Below are positions 7,541 to 56,262 of a DNA stretch of 64,000 bases, piece by piece. The notes under the pieces are model-generated. The model saw only the letters and a list, made by a program, of their open reading frames with translations. It was not told where the DNA came from and did not search any database. This DNA is from Eledone cirrhosa. Taxonomy: Eukaryota. A program made the translations under genes and the position numbers. Within the stretch, counting starts at the first letter, position 1. Every line of letters begins with the position of its first letter. The stretch lies in the NCBI GenBank assembly GCA_964016885.1, contig OZ024751.1:47554001-47618000 (forward strand), given 5' to 3'.

Positions 7541-8122
7541 TCACGGAGGTTTGAATCTTATGAATTTAGTGGCTATTCTATGTCTGCAGAAGATAGATCT
7601 TTCTAACTTATTGTTAAGTAGCCTTTTAACATTTCTAAGGATATACAATAGCTCAAGATCACACAGCCCGCAATAGGACATCCCTGTACTATAGGTTTTA
7701 GCAGCCGACAACTTCGACCAGTTGATACTGTAGTTAGTGTTGCTGTCCTTCAATTCCCATATTTTTCTGGCGAGGGTGGTGGAACCCATAAGTGCACGGT
7801 TTTTCATTGAGTGCCTGTGCACATACCATCTTTTCTTAAAAGAACCCGCGGTGGATCCTATGTAATTCCAGGTGGAGTTATCCGAGATGACAGTGCACAT
7901 GTACACCAGGCTCGAATCGAGACATCTGTTCGCCAATGGGCACCTATCTGGGAGGTGACAGTTACAGTTTGAGGCGCTATTTTGTGCAGCTTTTACATTC
8001 CTGTTTAGTACTCTGTTATAAGTGGGTTGTGATATATGCCCAATAGGGGTTTTGCTGCTGCGCGTTTGTATGCGCTTGTGGTTGTGATGTTGTGATGAGT
8101 TTGTGCTTATGTATAGGTGCAA
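7541..8122 (-). pseudogene. PLE Zn-knuckle + GIY-YIG endonuclease (left arm)
   Basis: CNC-x5-CPL-x3-CL, then LVY...NYIGST..FKKRW..H, CGLC, CRHR. Confidence 0.88.
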
Positions 8123-9512
8123 TTGATTTACTAGAGATATTTCTGTGGTTGATCTTGCGTATGTGTGATTCTATGTTAGCTGCTGTTGAGAATGAGAGTT
8201 TTATAATAGATCTATTGAGTATTTTGTGATATCTATGCGAGATAGGGAAGTGTTTATCTATTAGTTTAAAGAATGTAGAGGGCAGTCTAGTTTTTATAGA
8301 GGAGTTGAATATTGGGTTGAACCATAGGTATTTTCTTTGTCTGTTTCTTCTATTGTTTCTTGGGTTTACGTTATTAGTGTTTTGACCGATAACTCCAGGT
8401 GTTACATGTCTAACCCTATGTCTAGTCAAGCTATTCCTATTATTATGTGAGCGGTTAGAGTAGTAATTACTAGGATTGTTTATGTTGTCCTTATTCACTA
8501 TATACTGTAGTTTATCTTTATGACCGGCCCTACTTAATGCTGCATTATAATAGTCAGCATGCTCGTTAAAGATTTCTAGGTTTGAGGATAAGCGGGATAT
8601 TCGGAGGGATATACTACGTGCTATGGATTTAATTATGGATTTGGGGTGATTTGAGTTGTAACTAATGTTGGCAAGATTTTCCTTATTTTTGTGGAAAGGT
8701 TCTATTAATCCAGTATTTAGATTTAGAGTTACATCTAGAAAATTTACCTTCTTATGGTTTAGTTCGTAGGTAATACTTAGGCCTAGTTTTTTGAAGAATA
8801 TTCTAATATTTTTCCTTAGTCTTTCCATGCTCTGGTTGTTTAGGTTCCTAGCTATAAGTAACGTGTCGTCCCTATAAATTCCTCCTTGGAGGTTACTGAA
8901 TTCCTTATGTAGGTTGTGTGCTATGAATAGCCCCACGATATCTGTGATTTGCGCAGAATCATTTGATCCCATTGTTATATCGAAGCTATTTATTCTATCC
9001 TTTCTTACCCAGTAGTTATTTTCAAATTTTATGATAGTCCTTCTAGCCGCTATTATTATTTCAATTTCATCATGGGTAAGATCAGAGTTATTTTGGGCAA
9101 ATATAAGCGCCTTATCTAGGGTAGCTGGGGATATGGATGCATAATAGTCGTCTATATCAAATTGTATGAAGTTACACGTCTCCCTATTTTGTATTTTATT
9201 GAACCATTTAATTGCCTCGTTAGTGTTGCCCCATAAATTGATTTCTAGTTTACCCTTTATTTGTGCGATTACCCTATCTAGAATGTTTTTGCTAATTTTA
9301 CCTATGTCTGACTTGGATGGGCATATTAATCTAATGGTGGGATTAGTTTCAAAGTTATTTTTGTGATCCTTCAGGTTAAATGTAGGGTTGCACGGAGTAA
9401 GCGGTTCGGTCCTATCTGAAATTCCGAGTTTATTAACTATCTTGAGGCCCTCCATGTTAATGCTGGTGAGTGTAGATTCATTTGTTTTTTTATATTTTTT
9501 TATGTAGTTCAC
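8016..9512 (-). pseudogene. PLE reverse transcriptase (Naiad-type), 5' truncated, out of frame with the endonuclease
   Basis: LKDHKNNFETNPTIRLICPSKSDIGKISK, QFDIDDYYASIS, FDITMGSNDSAQ, GIYRDDTL (catalytic DD), VNFLDVTLNL, WFNP: motifs typical of Naiad-clade PLE RTs. Confidence 0.9.
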
Positions 9513-9845
9513 GCTGAATAAAGTTATTGTATGTGTTAATGACTAGACATAGGGTTAGACATGTAACACCTGGAGTAAACGGCCAAAACACTAATAACGT
9601 AAACCCAAGAAACAATAGAAGAAACAGACAAAGAAAATACCTATGGTTCAACCCAATATTCAACTCCTCTATAAAAACTAGACTGCCCTCTACATTCTTT
9701 AAACTAATAGATAAACACTTCCCTATCTCGCATAGATATCACAAAATACTCAATAGATCTATTATAAAACTCTCATTCTCAACAGCAGCTAACATAGAAT
9801 CACACATACGCAAGATCAACCACAGAAATATCTCTAGTAAATCAA

Positions 9846-10427
9846 TTGCACCTATACATAAGCACAAACTCATCACAACATCACAACCACAAGCGCATAC
9901 AAACGCGCAGCAGCAAAACCCCTATTGGGCATATATCACAACCCACTTATAACAGAGTACTAAACAGGAATGTAAAAGCTGCACAAAATAGCGCCTCAAA
10001 CTGTAACTGTCACCTCCCAGATAGGTGCCCATTGGCGAACAGATGTCTCGATTCGAGCCTGGTGTACATGTGCACTGTCATCTCGGATAACTCCACCTGG
10101 AATTACATAGGATCCACCGCGGGTTCTTTTAAGAAAAGATGGTATGTGCACAGGCACTCAATGAAAAACCGTGCACTTATGGGTTCCACCACCCTCGCCA
10201 GAAAAATATGGGAATTGAAGGACAGCAACACTAACTACAGTATCAACTGGTCGAAGTTGTCGGCTGCTAAAACCTATAGTACAGGGATGTCCTATTGCGG
10301 GCTGTGTGATCTTGAGCTATTGTATATCCTTAGAAATGTTAAAAGGCTACTTAACAATAAGTTAGAAAGATCTATCTTCTGCAGACATAGAATAGCCACT
10401 AAATTCATAAGATTCAAACCTCCGTGA
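9846..10427 (+). pseudogene. PLE Zn-knuckle + GIY-YIG endonuclease (right arm, identical protein)
   Basis: Same 193-aa translation as 7541-8122. Confidence 0.88.
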
Positions 10428-11649: not shown

Positions 11650-11689
<40 letters not shown>

Positions 11690-11713
11690 TATATATATAA
11701 ATATATATATATA

Positions 11714-11908
11714 AATTAGAAATATAGGCTATCGCCGTATTTTGACTAAAGAAATTAAAGAAATTATTTAATGGAAAAAGATGAGTATTGATGTACATCA
11801 ATACTCATCTTTTTCCATTTCTCCGAGGGTTCTTAACCCCACTATCAGGCTAAATAATTTCTTTAATTTCTTTAGTCAAAATACGGCGATAGCTTATATT
11901 TCTAATTT
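11714..11908. repeat. Nested fold-back element next to (TA)n
   Basis: Outer arms ~11714-11769 and ~11851-11908, plus a perfect ~50-bp palindrome AATGGAAAAAGATGAGTATTGATGT|ACATCAATACTCATCTTTTTCCATT at ~11770-11819. Confidence 0.8.
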
Positions 11909-12177
11909 AAATCTCGCTCGCTGTTTCGAAAATATTCTTACATATATATATATATATAGTTTTAATATAGATGAGATTCTACAGGACTAGAACTGTTTCA
12001 TTCTTTAGAAATCATCAGTATATATATATATGAGATCCTCACTTGCTGTGGAATCGGTAAAACCCAGCCATAGGTTAGAAAATCATTGTAATAACTACAT
12101 TCTACTTTCGAATACTAAGCTAAGAACTAGTAACTTCCCTCACTCTTTCTCTCTCTCACTATATATATATATATATT

Positions 12178-28694: not shown

Positions 28695-28825
28695 TTATTT
28701 AGGTTTGTTGGTTCACCACTGGATAGATATATATATATACATATATATATATATGTGTTCAATCGGGAGTAACACAGTAAGTAATGTAATCAATACATAG
28801 CATAGTATAAATATTTAATATAGAA

Positions 28826-28925
28826 ATGGCTTCTACAGGACTAGAACTGTTTCATTTGGAAGAAATCCTCAGGAAATCTGATGATTTCCTCCGAATGAAA
28901 CAGTTCTAGTCCTGTAGAAGTCATT
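28826..28925. mobile_element. Fold-back element family A with hammerhead-like cores in both arms
   Basis: CTGATGA-TTTCCTCCGAAT-GAAAC-AGTTCTA-GTC on plus (28878 onward), and the CTGAGGA version on minus. Other copies at 11979-12018 and 46817-47020. Confidence 0.6.
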
Positions 28926-28962: not shown

Positions 28963-29009
<47 letters not shown>

Positions 29010-29011
<2 letters not shown>

Positions 29012-29220
29012 CGAAGGAAATGTGGCAAGGAACCAGGTGGACCATAACGCACCAAAGTACTCAATACTTAGGGTAGTAGAGTGGGTAATAGGAACGAGTA
29101 GGACCCCGACGGCTGAGCTCAAGCCGTTTCGACGGCTAATTCTGGACTAGTCTAGACTGTAGTCCAGAATTAGCCGTCGAAACGGCTTGAACTCAGCCGT
29201 CGGGGTCCTACTAGTTGCTA
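29010..29220. mobile_element. Fold-back element family B in (TA)n
   Basis: Palindrome ~29095-29215 (CCCCGACGGC..GCCGTTTCGACGGC / GCCGTCGAAACGGC..GCCGTCGGGG) plus a unique tail. Copies at 44190-44386 and 56105-56265; diverged copy at 63800-63905. Confidence 0.8.
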
Positions 29221-29438
29221 TATATATATATATATATATATATATAGGAACTAGTAGGTTATGTAACTGTTATAGAAACACGTGTCAATAAATTCCTTTC
29301 AACTAAACTGTATCCATTCAAATCTTTCTATTTTTCTCCGGATTACTTTTGGAACTACAACTGGAACCGTCGAGCAAACTCTACGTGAGCTGATAATCTA
29401 CTGTGTGTAATATTTATATTACAACACAACGGAAAATA

Positions 29439-30240: not shown

Positions 30241-30242
<2 letters not shown>

Positions 30243-30715
30243 TAGGAGGTGAGTTTTATTTTAGCACAATAAACCAATGCAAATATCCGATAAATAGCAC
30301 TCAATACTTATGTATTATCTTACAACGTTATTTTTTTAATTTCTCTCTGTGAGACAGTATTTCTCAGTATTAAAGGCTATCTCTCTCTCTATCTCACTTA
30401 TTTTCTCCTCCTCTCTCATCCTTCCTTCTTATAATCCTTCTCCGTCATCCTTTCCTTATTATTATATATTTTTTTCTTATTATATTCTTTCTTCCTCTTC
30501 CTTACCTTTTCCTTCCACCTTCTATTCTTTTTTTTTCCAATCTCATATATCCATCTTATTTTATTTTTCATATGTAGATTTAACACTTCACTGCTCGCAA
30601 GTGTTTTTTAAGCTTCCCTATTGTATCTGATGAGAACGCAAATATCATCCCATGATGATATTTGTTTTTGAAATGCGCATAATAAAATACATGGAACTCT
30701 TTTAACCATCTTTTG

Positions 30716-30720
<5 letters not shown>
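30241..30720. mobile_element. Diverged fold-back family D copy with hammerhead at ~30615-30697 (+)
   Basis: Tail AGGAGGTGAG... at 30244; CTGATGA (30627), GAAA (30670), TGCGCATA. The left arm is replaced by unrelated pyrimidine-rich DNA. Confidence 0.75.
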
Positions 30721-30759
<39 letters not shown>

Positions 30760-30968
30760 AAAGTTTTATTTAAATTGTTGGGATACAACAAGCAAATATT
30801 TTTATAACTGATATAAAGCACTCGACAAATATTTGGAGTAAACATACGATATTAATAAATGGAAACTATATTTATAAAACCATATTTATTTCATTATATA
30901 TATTTCAAGGATACCAAGTTACATTAAAGGGGTACGTCAATGTCTATTTATAAAACTGTTATATATTG

Positions 30969-31033
30969 TATTTTGTCTGATGAAGGCATACCATAATGTA
31001 ACTTGGTATCCTTGAAATATATATAATGAAATA
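30969..31033 (+). ncRNA. Minimal type I hammerhead ribozyme, family E, within an 83-bp inverted repeat (30844-30926 / 30994-31076)
   Basis: Helix I TATTTTGT/ATGAAATA; CTGATGA (30977); helix II AGGCATACCA/TGGTATCCT; GAAA (31014); palindromic helix III ATATATAT; ATA triplet (31023-31025). Confidence 0.75.
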
Positions 31034-31200
31034 AATATGGTTTTATAAATATAGTTTCCATTTATTAATATCGTATATATATATATAAGACATTTAATAA
31101 AATTAATCTATTCATGAATGGCTATATATGCATATGTATATAGAGATTAATATACACACACATGCACATCTCCCCTCTCTCTCTCTCTCTCTCTCTCTCT

Positions 31201-42171: not shown

Positions 42172-42180
42172 ATATTATCT

Positions 42181-42275
42181 ATATATTATGCATACTCCAG
42201 TCCTACAAACTGTAGAGTGCTTCTTATCCGATATCTGCATTGCTTTATTGTACTACAATAAAACTCACCTCCTAC

Positions 42276-44189: not shown

Positions 44190-44386
44190 TATAACAAAGG
44201 AATTGTGGTAAGGGACCAGATAGACCATAACGCACCAGAGTACTCAATACTTAGGGTAGTAGAGTGGGAAATAGGAAAAAAGTATGACCCCGACGGCAGA
44301 GCTAAAGCCGTTTCGACGGCTATTTCAGTCCAGAAATACCCGTCGAAACGGCTTGAGCTCTGCCGTCGGGGTCATACTTTTTCCTA
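44190..44386. mobile_element. Fold-back family B copy
   Basis: Palindrome ~44272-44386 plus the tail shared with 29010-29100. Confidence 0.8.
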
Positions 44387-44420
44387 TATATATATATATG
44401 TGTGTGTGTGTATGTATACG

Positions 44421-51791: not shown

Positions 51792-51892
51792 GAATACATG
51801 TATAGATATTTATATATATGTATGTATATAAATATATGTATAAATAGATATTTATGTGCATGAGTATATATATATATATATATATATATATG

Positions 51893-52305
51893 TAGGAGGT
51901 GAGTTTTATTGTAGTACAATAAAGCAATGCAGATATCGGATAAGAAGCACTCTACAGTTTGTAGGACTGGAGTATACATAATATAAGATCAAAAGATGGT
52001 TAAAGGAGTTCCATGTATTTTATTATGCGCATTTCAAAAACAAACATCATCATGCAATAATATTTGTGTTTTCATCAGATAAAACAGGAGAACATGATAT
52101 GAAGGCTAAAAAACACTTGTGGCTAGTGCAGTTTTAAATCAACATATGTTGATTTAAAACTGCACTATCCACAAGTGTTTTTTAGCCTTCATATCATGTT
52201 CTCCTGTTTTATCTGATGAAAACACAAATATTATTGCATGATGATGTTTGTTTTTGAAATGCGCATAATAAAATACATGGAGCTCCTTTAACCATCTTTT
52301 GATCT

Positions 52306-52313
<8 letters not shown>
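51893..52313. mobile_element. Fold-back family D element: ~336-bp loopless palindrome plus ~85-bp tail, in (TA)n
   Basis: Palindrome 51978-52313 centred on AATCAACAT|ATGTTGATT (52145/52146), with about 2 mismatches. Confidence 0.92.
52201..52282 (+). ncRNA. Minimal type I hammerhead ribozyme, family D (mirror copy 52009-52090, minus)
   Basis: Helix I CTCC-TGT-TTTAT/ATAAAATACATGGAG; CTGATGA (52213); helix II ACAAATATTATT/GATGATGTTTGT; GAAA (52256); palindromic helix III ATGCGCAT; ATA triplet (52265-52267). Confidence 0.82.
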
Positions 52314-52355
<42 letters not shown>

Positions 52356-52454
52356 AATAGATATTTGTGTGCAGGAGTGTATATCTATATATATGTATAT
52401 AAATATATGTATAAATAGATATTTATGTTCATGAGTATATATATATACATATAC

Positions 52455-52524
<70 letters not shown>

Positions 52525-52694
52525 GCACATATATATATACAAATACGCACATACACACGTACACACACATATATATATATATATATATATGGGTCGGTGC
52601 GTCTGGATTTCCCAAAGCTTTTGTACTCGTCAAATGTTTCAGTGTATTGTATTTGTGTTGCTCTTTTGGCAAATAAAGACTCTGTTATTGTTGG

Positions 52695-52726
<32 letters not shown>

Positions 52727-53086
52727 GATATAAACACCTTTTGTAATAAGTATTCTTATGCTAAGGTATCCAGCACCGAATGGGAAAACAAGAAAAATAT
52801 CACCAACGACTAAAACAGAAACGATGACAGAGACAAGAAGAAGACGAAGAAGAAGAAGAAGAAGAAGAAGAAGAAGAAGAAGAAGAAGAAGAAGAAGAAG
52901 AAGAAGAAGAAGAAGAAGAAGAAGAAGAAGAAGAAGAAACGGAAGAAGAAGAAATGAAGAAGAAGAAGAAGATGGAGGACGAGGAGAAGAAGAAGGAAAA
53001 GAAGAAGAAAAAAGAAAAAGAAGAAAAAGAAGAAGAAGGAGGAGAAGAAGATGAAGAAGAAGAAGAAGAAGAAGAAGAAGAAGAAG

Positions 53087-53120
<34 letters not shown>

Positions 53121-53650
53121 TCGACAACGACAGTAGCAATAACAATAACAGCATCAACAACAAGAATTACAACAACACCGTTTGTACACACAAAAAATAA
53201 ACTGTCAAAACAACAACAACCACTTCCACAGAAACAACAACAGCAGCAACAACAACAACAACAGCAACACCAATAACAACAACAGCAACAACAACAGCTT
53301 ATCCTGTACTCAGTTGTTTGGCTTAATATTTTGCACCAAAACAGACAAATGAAATACCTCAACCGTTCTATCTTCTCAGACAGAAAACATAACTTGGAAT
53401 GACCTTCACCTCCACAGATATACGTTACACATAGAGAAAATACACACACGCTCACACACACACTCACATACACACACAGGCACACACACTCACATACACA
53501 CACACTCACATACCTATGCACATTCAACCACATAGCCATACTAAATACATACATACACCAAATAAACAAAAATATATTTTTTATCAGTTTTACTTCTTTT
53601 CTAAGGCATTGTTTAACTTTTTATCGATTCTACAAAGATTCGCTTGTAAT

Positions 53651-53749
<99 letters not shown>

Positions 53750-53984
53750 GTAATAATAATAAATTTGAAGACTAAAATCCAAAGAGGGCTCGATAGAGAT
53801 AAATATATATCAAATATATAAGAACCGTAGAGCAAATTTTTATACATATATGGATATATAATAATTATAAAATAACGAGATTGGCCATACGGAATGACCA
53901 GTTCTATCCAGTGGTGAACCAACTAACCTAAATATATGTATATATATATATATGTATATATATATACATATATATATATATGTG

Positions 53985-54035
<51 letters not shown>

Positions 54036-54038
<3 letters not shown>

Positions 54039-54450
54039 GGAGGTGAGTTTTATTGTAGTACAATAAAGCAATGCAGATATCGGATAAGAAGCACTCTACA
54101 GTTTGTGGGACTGGAGTATGCATAATATAAGATCAAAAGATGGTTAAAGGAGTTCCATATATTTTATTATGCGCATTTCAAAAACAAACATCATCATGCA
54201 ATAATATTTGTGTTTTCATCAGATAAAACAGGAGAACATGATATGAAGGCTAAAAAACACTTGTGGATAGTGCAGTTTTAAATCAATATGTTGATTTAAA
54301 ACTGCACCATCCACAAGTGTTTTTTAGCCTTCATATCATGTTCTCCTGTTTTATCTGATGAAAACACAAATATTATTGCATGATGATGTTTGTTTTTGAA
54401 ATGCGCATAATAAAATATATGGAACTCCTTTAACCATCTTTTGATCTTAT
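54036..54450. mobile_element. Second intact fold-back family D element, with hammerheads at 54343-54424 (+) and ~54153-54234 (-)
   Basis: Same tail, same fold-back centre (AATCAA-TATG-TTGATT), CTGATGA at 54355, GAAA at 54398; flanks differ from the 51893 copy. Confidence 0.9.
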
Positions 54451-54468
54451 ATATATATTTATATATAT

Positions 54469-54836: not shown

Positions 54837-54909
<73 letters not shown>

Positions 54910-55100
54910 CATTAAGGCAAGTTACTACATTGGTGACATACCAGGTACGTACGATTCGTTAGACCTGAGGCTCTACCTTACATATTCAACCTGTGCCGAT
55001 GAAAGTTAACCGGAAAACCAGGTTGAATAAGATGGTCCTCAGATCTAACGAAACGTACGTACCTGGAATGGTGCCGTTGGAGTAACTATCCTTAATCATT
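54910..55100. mobile_element. Diverged fold-back family C with hammerhead 3' half
   Basis: Imperfect inverted repeat. The right arm has CGAAAC-GTAC-GTA (palindromic ACGTACGT helix III), with CCGATGA near the centre. Confidence 0.55.
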
Positions 55101-55180
55101 ATATTCAAACATGCCCTGCGGACTTGAGGTGCCTCTATACCTTAGATATCTTTAGCAACCTATTACTATTATATATATAC

Positions 55181-56104: not shown

Positions 56105-56262
56105 GAGGAAAAAGTTAACCCCGACGGCAGAGCTCAAGCCGTCGAAACGGCTTGAGCTCTTCCGTCGGGGTTAACCTTTTTCCTATTACCCACTCCACTA
56201 CCCTAAGTATTGAGTACTCTGGTGCGTTATGGTCCATCTGGTTCTTTACCACATTTCCTTTG

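Follow-up and report, generated by a model that had tools for sequence, protein, structure and literature searches.

Penelope-like elements (PLEs) of the Hydra clade are described as carrying RWK and DKT motifs, a CxCX5C linker, CxxC and CxH motifs, a hammerhead ribozyme and insertions in (TA)n, at a length generally below 3 kb (Craig et al. 2021, PMC8557442). Among PLEs, inverted terminal repeats (pLTRs) whose tail lies on one side only are known, as are palindromic junctions and pairs of ribozymes on opposite strands (PMC3846280, PMC8557442, PMC2377424, PMC4209133), and the formation of PLE tandem and inverted repeats has been called undefined (PMC8557442). Transcription of D. virilis Penelope starts from a promoter inside the pLTR (PMC2377424). 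For another PLE, Poseidon of Anolis, nicking and priming of both target strands were demonstrated in vitro (PMC11167929).

The stretch analysed here, hereafter the window, comprises 64,000 nucleotides of Eledone cirrhosa (contig OZ024751.1, positions 47,554,001 to 47,618,000). Two copies of a short unit in this window form loopless palindromes with a tail on one side only, as a preliminary description of this DNA had stated. The arms of copy 1 (51973-52145 and 52146-52318) are 98% complementary, with TA as their outermost few bases, and those of copy 2 (54125-54286 and 54291-54452) are 99% complementary. Both copies carry an 80-nt tail, which ends with CTCACCTCCTAC and adjoins (TA)n. Units are numbered from the A of ATG at 52146 (position 1), with the pLTR at 1-173 and the tail at 174-253. 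Copy 1 thus reads as a tail on the minus strand (51892-51972, unit 174-253), whose end at (TA)n would be the first reverse-transcription start, followed by the tail-bearing pLTR arm (51973-52145, minus strand, unit 1-173) and the centre CATATG (52143-52148), where both arms end at ATAT (unit -1), the putative RNA 5′ end. The inverted arm without tail (52146-52313, plus strand) ends with TATATTAT at (TA)n, the presumed second reverse-transcription start. Copy 2 consists of a tail and tail-bearing arm on the minus strand (54036-54287, hammerhead core at 54222) and an inverted arm on the plus strand (54288-54450, core at 54355), and its centre is 2 nt shorter than that of copy 1.

All three copies then recognised had been thought to turn at or start from CATATG. 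This holds for the two palindromes, allowing for the 2 nt missing in copy 2, but not for copy 3. Here the pLTR, which belongs to an older subfamily (30570-30724, plus strand, hammerhead core at 30627, ending at (TA)n), reads across the native junction TTTTTCATATG and takes in about 255 nt of CT-rich 3′ UTR belonging to an autonomous element (30314-30569, plus strand), which is followed by an inverted, truncated tail fragment (30242-30302, minus strand, about unit 193-253). A fourth copy, overlooked earlier, is a solo tail fragment between (TA)n runs (42177-42275, plus strand).

The unit extends into a coding element. The tail 20-mer occurs in 13,476 exact copies in the 3.0-Gb genome, while its reversed control yields 0; all genome-wide counts given here refer to exact sequence patterns. 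In natural copies an ORF follows about 80 nt after the tail, and position 1 of the unit is preceded by the end of the ORF and a 0.9-kb CT-rich 3′ UTR; ORF, UTR and pLTR are contiguous in L012, L029, L036 and L003. The element is thus ordered as pLTR (1-173), tail (174-253), ORF (RT and C-terminal GIY-YIG) and 0.9-kb 3′ UTR, arranged head to tail in units of about 3.6 kb (length taken from L036). Natural copies display the RT motifs FDIASYY, YRDDGL and FLDV and the endonuclease region LIYECKV..YFGST. As in EN+ PLEs, a single ORF encodes RT followed by a GIY-YIG-type endonuclease, here in broken copies, and the pLTR arises by partial tandem arrangement, with an inverted 5′-truncated copy and the tail at one end. 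Hydra-clade features comprise RRLRWI (RWI, not RWK) and HSDKTNN, the CxCX5C linker (CNCPVKNKC or CNCRIKNKC), CxxC (CNLCLNE) and CxH (INRR..CLH), with no CCHH found by eye, as well as the hammerhead in the pLTR and insertion in (TA)n. The length of about 3.6 kb exceeds the clade's usual 3 kb, which is a tendency rather than a strict criterion. Homologues are RT-EN proteins of ~700 aa (77 matches, best 42% identity). None of the fetched copies holds an intact ORF. Pfam gave no useful match for three ORF pieces and none for four homologues, and a PDB sequence search returned 0 matches. The L036 ORF contains an asparagine-rich stretch of ~90 aa between RT thumb and endonuclease, which is missing from most homologues and resembles the N-rich inserts of rotifer Penelope. 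In an older subfamily (L048, L066, L098) the sequence differs upstream of unit position 25.

By its motifs, the parent would be an autonomous RT/GIY-YIG PLE of Hydra-clade type. Contiguity with ORF and UTR, together with these motifs, identifies what had been called a mini-element as the pLTR and tail of this PLE. The suspected PLE origin is thereby supported. An independent non-autonomous family, as first proposed, does not fit a unit that is the autonomous element's own pLTR and tail and shares its haplotypes with long copies reaching into UTR and ORF.

A type I hammerhead core (CUGAUGA, GAAA, AUA triplet and a AUGCGCAU helix III) is present in 4/4 palindrome arms and in copy 3, at 52213, 54355 and 30627 on the plus strand and at 52078 and 54222 on the minus strand, in line with the original report of a complete minimal hammerhead in each arm and on both strands. 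The copy 1 motifs span 52205-52275 (plus strand), with a predicted cut after 52267, unit 122, the very position proposed before, and 52016-52086 (minus strand), with a predicted cut after 52024. Helix I measures 8 bp, helix II is long at 15 bp and helix III is palindromic; catalytic core, long helix II and palindromic helix III, which define the minimal type I hammerheads of PLEs, are all there. Across 14 haplotypes, 98% of helix cells pair and 8 pairs vary one-sidedly, with 0 compensatory pairs and helix support not above that of shuffles. The closing pair of helix II is A-U in 10 and G-U in 4 haplotypes, not the usual G10.1-C11.1. Single-arm folds have weak z-scores (-0.7 to -2.3). No Rfam hammerhead family is among the 11 matches of the palindrome arm. 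None appears either among the 150 of 351 Rfam matches listed for the window, where miRNA and snoRNA matches remain below threshold. In computed folds, two arms cofold via helix III, and in a whole-palindrome transcript the pair probability of helix I is 0.00. As the antisense arm precedes the ribozyme on either strand, the ribozyme is predicted to be masked in such a transcript. The motifs indicate that the hammerhead is the element's ordinary pLTR ribozyme.

Other families in the window adopt comparable forms. A second Hydra-like PLE family, with tail and fold-back form, lies at 29009-29221, 44192-44387 and 56137-56260, and also at L056, L014, L091, L058, L085, L084, L071 and L060. Its outer ends are fixed at 61 and 140 and its inner end at TTT|AGTCC, without a self-complementary hexamer at the inner end and without a CUGANGA core; in L060 a Hydra-like endonuclease end lies directly upstream (E 6e-8). 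That this second family has the same form with neither element indicates that a fixed fold-back needs neither the hammerhead core nor CATATG. The family has a GCCGTCGAAACGGC hairpin but no CUGANGA core, though hammerheads are said to be universal in Hydra, and it may hold a variant or a different ribozyme. A third family (30757-31076; L056, L084, L097) has its own hammerhead, with the core at 30977 and helix III AUAUAUAU, and its outer ends, also fixed, lie in (TA)n at a distance of 87 nt from each other. Yet another family contributes a short minimal hammerhead (CUGAUGA..GAAAC) at 28825-28925 and 11985-12030, the fold-back falling inside the ribozyme at 28825-28925. The window also holds a remnant of another Hydra-like PLE at 7562-10406 (RT region 51% identical), with its 3′ part duplicated in inverted orientation, and further imperfect palindromes adjoining (TA)n at 54903-55104 and 11666-11958.

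For the anatomy of insertions we sampled the first 100 tail 20-mer matches on one chromosome, 30 of them with 1.5 kb and 70 with 5 kb of upstream sequence. Leaving out second anchors or duplicates (L037, L043, L063, L093) gave 96 loci; as the sample is anchored on the exact 20-mer, tail-less and diverged copies are under-represented. The tail end adjoins TA or CA repeats in 97/100 matches and runs into the ORF in the other 3/100, which substantiates the suggested (TA)n targeting. An inverted pLTR arm is joined to the tail-bearing copy at 71/96 loci (some of the remaining 25 extend past the fetched stretch), and its outer end falls at 163-174 in (TA)n in 62/71 cases and at the tail end in 4/71. 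Inner ends range from within the pLTR to more than 3 kb upstream, with insertion lengths up to 3.6 kb. Short palindromes account for 18/96 loci, with 13 different junction sequences, and none of the 96 loci is a direct tandem of short ribozyme units. At 24/96 loci the inverted arm extends further upstream than the tail-bearing copy, reaching into UTR or ORF in 15 and to -1 in 9. Among truncated tail-bearing copies, 24/41 stop at or beyond 153, that is near or before the second start site; this mild excess fits two primers acting on one RNA.

The centre of the palindromes is fixed throughout the genome. We counted 795 perfect CATATG centres and 756 centres with fillers of 1-14 nt, next to at least 5,344 native read-through junctions, though ratios between centres and read-throughs are approximate given search patterns of unequal length. 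The longer self-complementary site ATGCGCAT yields only 32 perfect centres, which indicates that microhomology alone is insufficient to define the site. In this respect the first account, which favoured a fixed fold-back site over random truncation, is supported.

Such a centre could conceivably arise if a single cDNA primed itself by snapping back, or if long inverted copies lost their interior by deletion between CATATG hexamers. Self-priming has been proposed for the palindromic junctions of rotifer Penelope (PMC3846280), CATATG is self-complementary, and some of the fillers resemble short snap-back extensions. However, the 24/96 inverted arms that reach further upstream hold sequence missing from the tail-bearing copy, and an inverted arm of this kind cannot be its snap-back copy. 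The 756 centres with fillers, the scarcity of centres at ATGCGCAT and a second family without a palindromic hexamer at its site also speak against both variants. Snap-back or deletion is thus already disfavoured, and we rate it very improbable. An arm primed at 173 is unable to supply the tail, and the 24/96 loci require two RNA-templated cDNAs.

Where both arms reach -1, their fates are coupled. Both stop at 18 loci and both read through at 13, with 1 mixed locus (Fisher P 4e-8). These classes include hand corrections (L031, L085 and L089 to stop/stop, L077 to read-through), and L023, L048 and L066 were left out of the stop counts. The base before ATATGTTGATTTAAAAC is natively C; of the 5,457 arms that have another base there genome-wide, 2,602 carry G, 2,059 T and 796 A. 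In hand counts of the first 50 filler junctions listed, G occupies 33/58 arm ends of multi-base fillers, and 20/21 single-base fillers are C or G. An extra G is a signature of cap reverse transcription, and position -1 sits in TCATAT, which we take to be Inr-like. The excess of G is partly confounded: CATG and ATG fillers could have been templated by pLTR position 45-53, single C or G fillers may represent the partner's native C, and joins to truncated partners favour TATC sites. Leaving out fillers possibly copied from within the pLTR, G is still found at 17/36 ends. Together, the paired stops and read-throughs and the frequent extra G point to a capped RNA 5′ end that was copied twice.

The same two-primer insertion might instead meet a site of strong RT pausing or of RNA processing at this base, rather than a transcription start. 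The fixed end is read from DNA junctions, part of the G signal is confounded as outlined, and 0/30 ORF-connected pLTRs start at -1: 18 run into the UTR and 12 are truncated within pLTR or tail (the 30 include three loci that had occurred before and two pairs whose members are the arms of a single locus). All three points suit a pause or processing site. A stochastic pause, on the other hand, would not leave the arms of one copy differing in 1/32 loci, nor does it sit well with the read-through of the site by at least 5,344 arms or with the sequence, presumably Inr-like, found at the site in two families. On balance we hold a pause or processing site to be unlikely and favour a transcription start. 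From the 0/30 count it follows that long cDNAs derive from RNA without the -1 end, and that a linear full-length RNA from -1 needs an added assumption, namely ribozyme cutting, circularisation or read-through RNA. Templates of the long cDNAs could be read-through multimers, or ribozyme-cut circles as proposed for other PLEs (PMC4209133).

Arms of one palindrome resemble each other far more than arms of different copies. The distance is 1.15% within short palindromes versus 5.6-5.8% between copies, and 0 recurring differences specific to the left or right arm were found in 19 short palindromes. Long inverted copies have a similar within-copy arm distance (1.5%, 14 copies), and the main haplotypes of short copies also occur among them. 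The near-identical arms, the absence of recurring arm-specific differences and the varying junctions indicate that palindromes were probably built at insertion rather than inherited.

These findings bear on the view taken in the preliminary description, in which the palindrome itself is mobile, a non-autonomous fold-back family that is transcribed whole, processed by its ribozyme and copied in trans. At least 1,551 palindromes of near-identical length, their presence at 18/96 sampled loci and ribozyme cores intact in both arms would be expected of such a family. It is hard to reconcile with 13 different junction sequences among those 18 loci, with arms that lack shared specific differences and have haplotypes in common with long copies, and with ribozymes predicted to be masked in the full hairpin. 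Nor is the cut site a strong end. Among the genome-wide junctions listed, 8/71 lie at unit 123 (P 0.06) and 26/71 at 120-124 (P 0.12) by hand count, after 29/100 listed rows were left out as indel or duplication variants, making the cut site a weak end point at most. A mobile palindrome appears highly improbable to us, and assembly at the moment of insertion is retained. A few copies start at unit 122-128 (L019, L067, L126, L036). Arms starting at or next to the predicted cut, which include cut-centred palindromes (L126; G000:C1:55115739-55115795, 244900699-244900754 and 158786022-158786466), may bear witness to cleaved RNA that served as a template.

Perfect palindromes are a known class of assembly artefact, and fold-back chimeras have to be considered for this reason. 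Raw RAD-seq reads from two runs of another study, labelled as the same species, have ends next to TA at the tail and around 173, and they switch strand at the -1 site in 77 and 88 reads from 2-3 start places; in one run, 97 strand-switch reads share a single start place. The perfectly symmetric joint is absent from the joints listed, and the check bears on junctions of the family in general rather than on the two window palindromes themselves. Private arm differences, varied fillers, fixed element-specific ends and the recurrence of the joint at the same site in independent reads leave an artefact with negligible probability. A read run labelled as another organism (X4, compared with L012) contains the family too, and its ends again fall at the tail, 173 and -1; the pattern is therefore likely to be older than this species.

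We consider it probable that the palindromes are the shortest and most repeated product of an insertion process in which two cDNAs of the same RNA ran off a likely capped 5′ end, the start-site part of this reading resting on DNA junctions. Both target strands would be nicked in (TA)n, each priming reverse transcription at a fixed internal site through short TA microhomology; copy ends place these sites at the tail end and at 163-173. Both cDNAs would share a template, be it a single RNA molecule or a single class of RNA, and the tail-primed one would either stop near the second primer or re-copy the same stretch. On RNAs starting at the Inr-like TC|ATATG, both cDNAs would run off there, often gaining a C opposite the cap, while on longer read-through or circular RNAs they would proceed into UTR and ORF and stop at scattered positions. 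The two cDNA 3′ ends would then be joined head to head, either via terminal ATAT, giving a perfect palindrome, or via short fillers; both kinds of joint are seen among the copies. The hammerhead would be a passenger in the palindrome, and as a dimer would act on long tandem RNA.

A further, rather doubtful extension is that every pLTR, palindrome arms included, keeps an internal promoter and that palindromes emit short capped RNAs outward from the centre, which the autonomous PLE copies twice so that a palindrome is rebuilt at a new (TA)n, with ribozyme-cut circles serving as templates for long copies. If this were true, the palindromes would behave as a SINE-like parasite: its RNA would consist of a single arm, and each cycle would restore the palindromic DNA form. 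With several families contributing, thousands of such hairpins would then supply a large part of the perfect dsRNA in this animal. The best protein match points to an octopod host; in such an animal the palindromes may be among the sources of the unusually large proportion of perfect dsRNA loci described in octopus (PMC5625713).

The feature is real, and we explain it as something that a Hydra-type PLE leaves behind, not as an element class of its own. Contrary to the initial proposal of a separate class, the palindromes form the short end of a continuum of inverted insertions, and a second family lacking the hammerhead core behaves alike. Thousands of recent insertions expose both cDNA starts, both cDNA ends and the joint between them. 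They favour two primed cDNAs from one RNA over snap-back, narrow the start, which is likely capped, to a single base, and hint at two classes of RNA template. If palindromes are indeed made anew, they amount to a genome-scale record of a poorly understood process, PLE insertion. As a caution for annotation, such palindromes are PLE ends but will be mistaken for MITEs, miRNA hairpins or novel elements with ribozymes.

The architecture had been thought undescribed. The open-access literature searched yielded no description of pLTR palindromes that lack an ORF and have a fixed centre, although the supplements of PMC8557442 may list the family or a related one, and none of paired run-off at a start site; inverted repeats of PLEs as such were already known. 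With Hydra-clade PLEs (PMC8557442) the element shares the single ORF, C-terminal GIY-YIG, RW(K/I), DKT, CxCX5C, CxxC and CxH motifs, the pLTR hammerhead and (TA)n, an assignment made by motifs. Unlike the elements described there, generally shorter than 3 kb, it reaches ~3.6 kb with a 0.9-kb 3′ UTR and an N-rich stretch. Its tail measures 80 nt as compared with the 30-40 nt given for PLEs (PMC8557442), and its copy number is very high. Dual hammerheads of Schistosoma (Cervera and de la Pena 2014, PMC4209133) likewise lie on opposite strands, 100-700 bp apart, and PLE hammerheads there also have a long helix II and a palindromic helix III. The text consulted calls the pairs probably truncated PLEs in one sentence and names neither a fixed site nor a mechanism.

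Metazoan non-LTR retrozymes (PMC7229834; bioRxiv 10.64898/2026.07.22.740005) are similarly small, non-coding and PLE-related, with a type I hammerhead. As far as these sources describe them, they are direct tandem repeats expressed as circles, whereas the present units are single, head-to-head and part of an autonomous element. The arrangement is therefore not a direct tandem of 150-450-bp hammerhead units, and the unit, contiguous with UTR and ORF, has no lineage apart from the coding element. Given also that no short direct tandem occurred among the 96 loci and that the cut site is no strong end point, the retrozyme-like label is not supported. In L1 twin priming, two target-strand primers act on one RNA and leave an inverted 5′ part; the second primer site is variable and the cDNAs barely overlap. 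Here, by contrast, neither site varies, and the cDNAs frequently overlap over their full length, which results in a palindrome.

The closest biochemical parallel is Poseidon of Anolis in vitro (Frangieh et al. 2024, PMC11167929), in which both strands of an AT-rich target are cut and then extended, RT starts at two internal sites that delimit the tail, and insertion does not require ribozyme cutting. Those data concern the first strand in vitro, whereas joining of the cDNAs and 5′ run-off are deduced here from genomic copies. Penelope of D. virilis and Pen2a of A. vaga share the inverted 5′-truncated copy, the one-sided tail and the palindromic junctions, and inverted PLE insertions are described as variable in size (PMC3846280, PMC2377424, PMC8557442). 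Self-priming was proposed for the rotifer junctions (PMC3846280), whereas the copy anatomy in E. cirrhosa needs two primed cDNAs. Also unlike those PLEs, a majority of the arms extending to the start of the pLTR end at one and the same base, and no form is commoner than the palindrome without an ORF.
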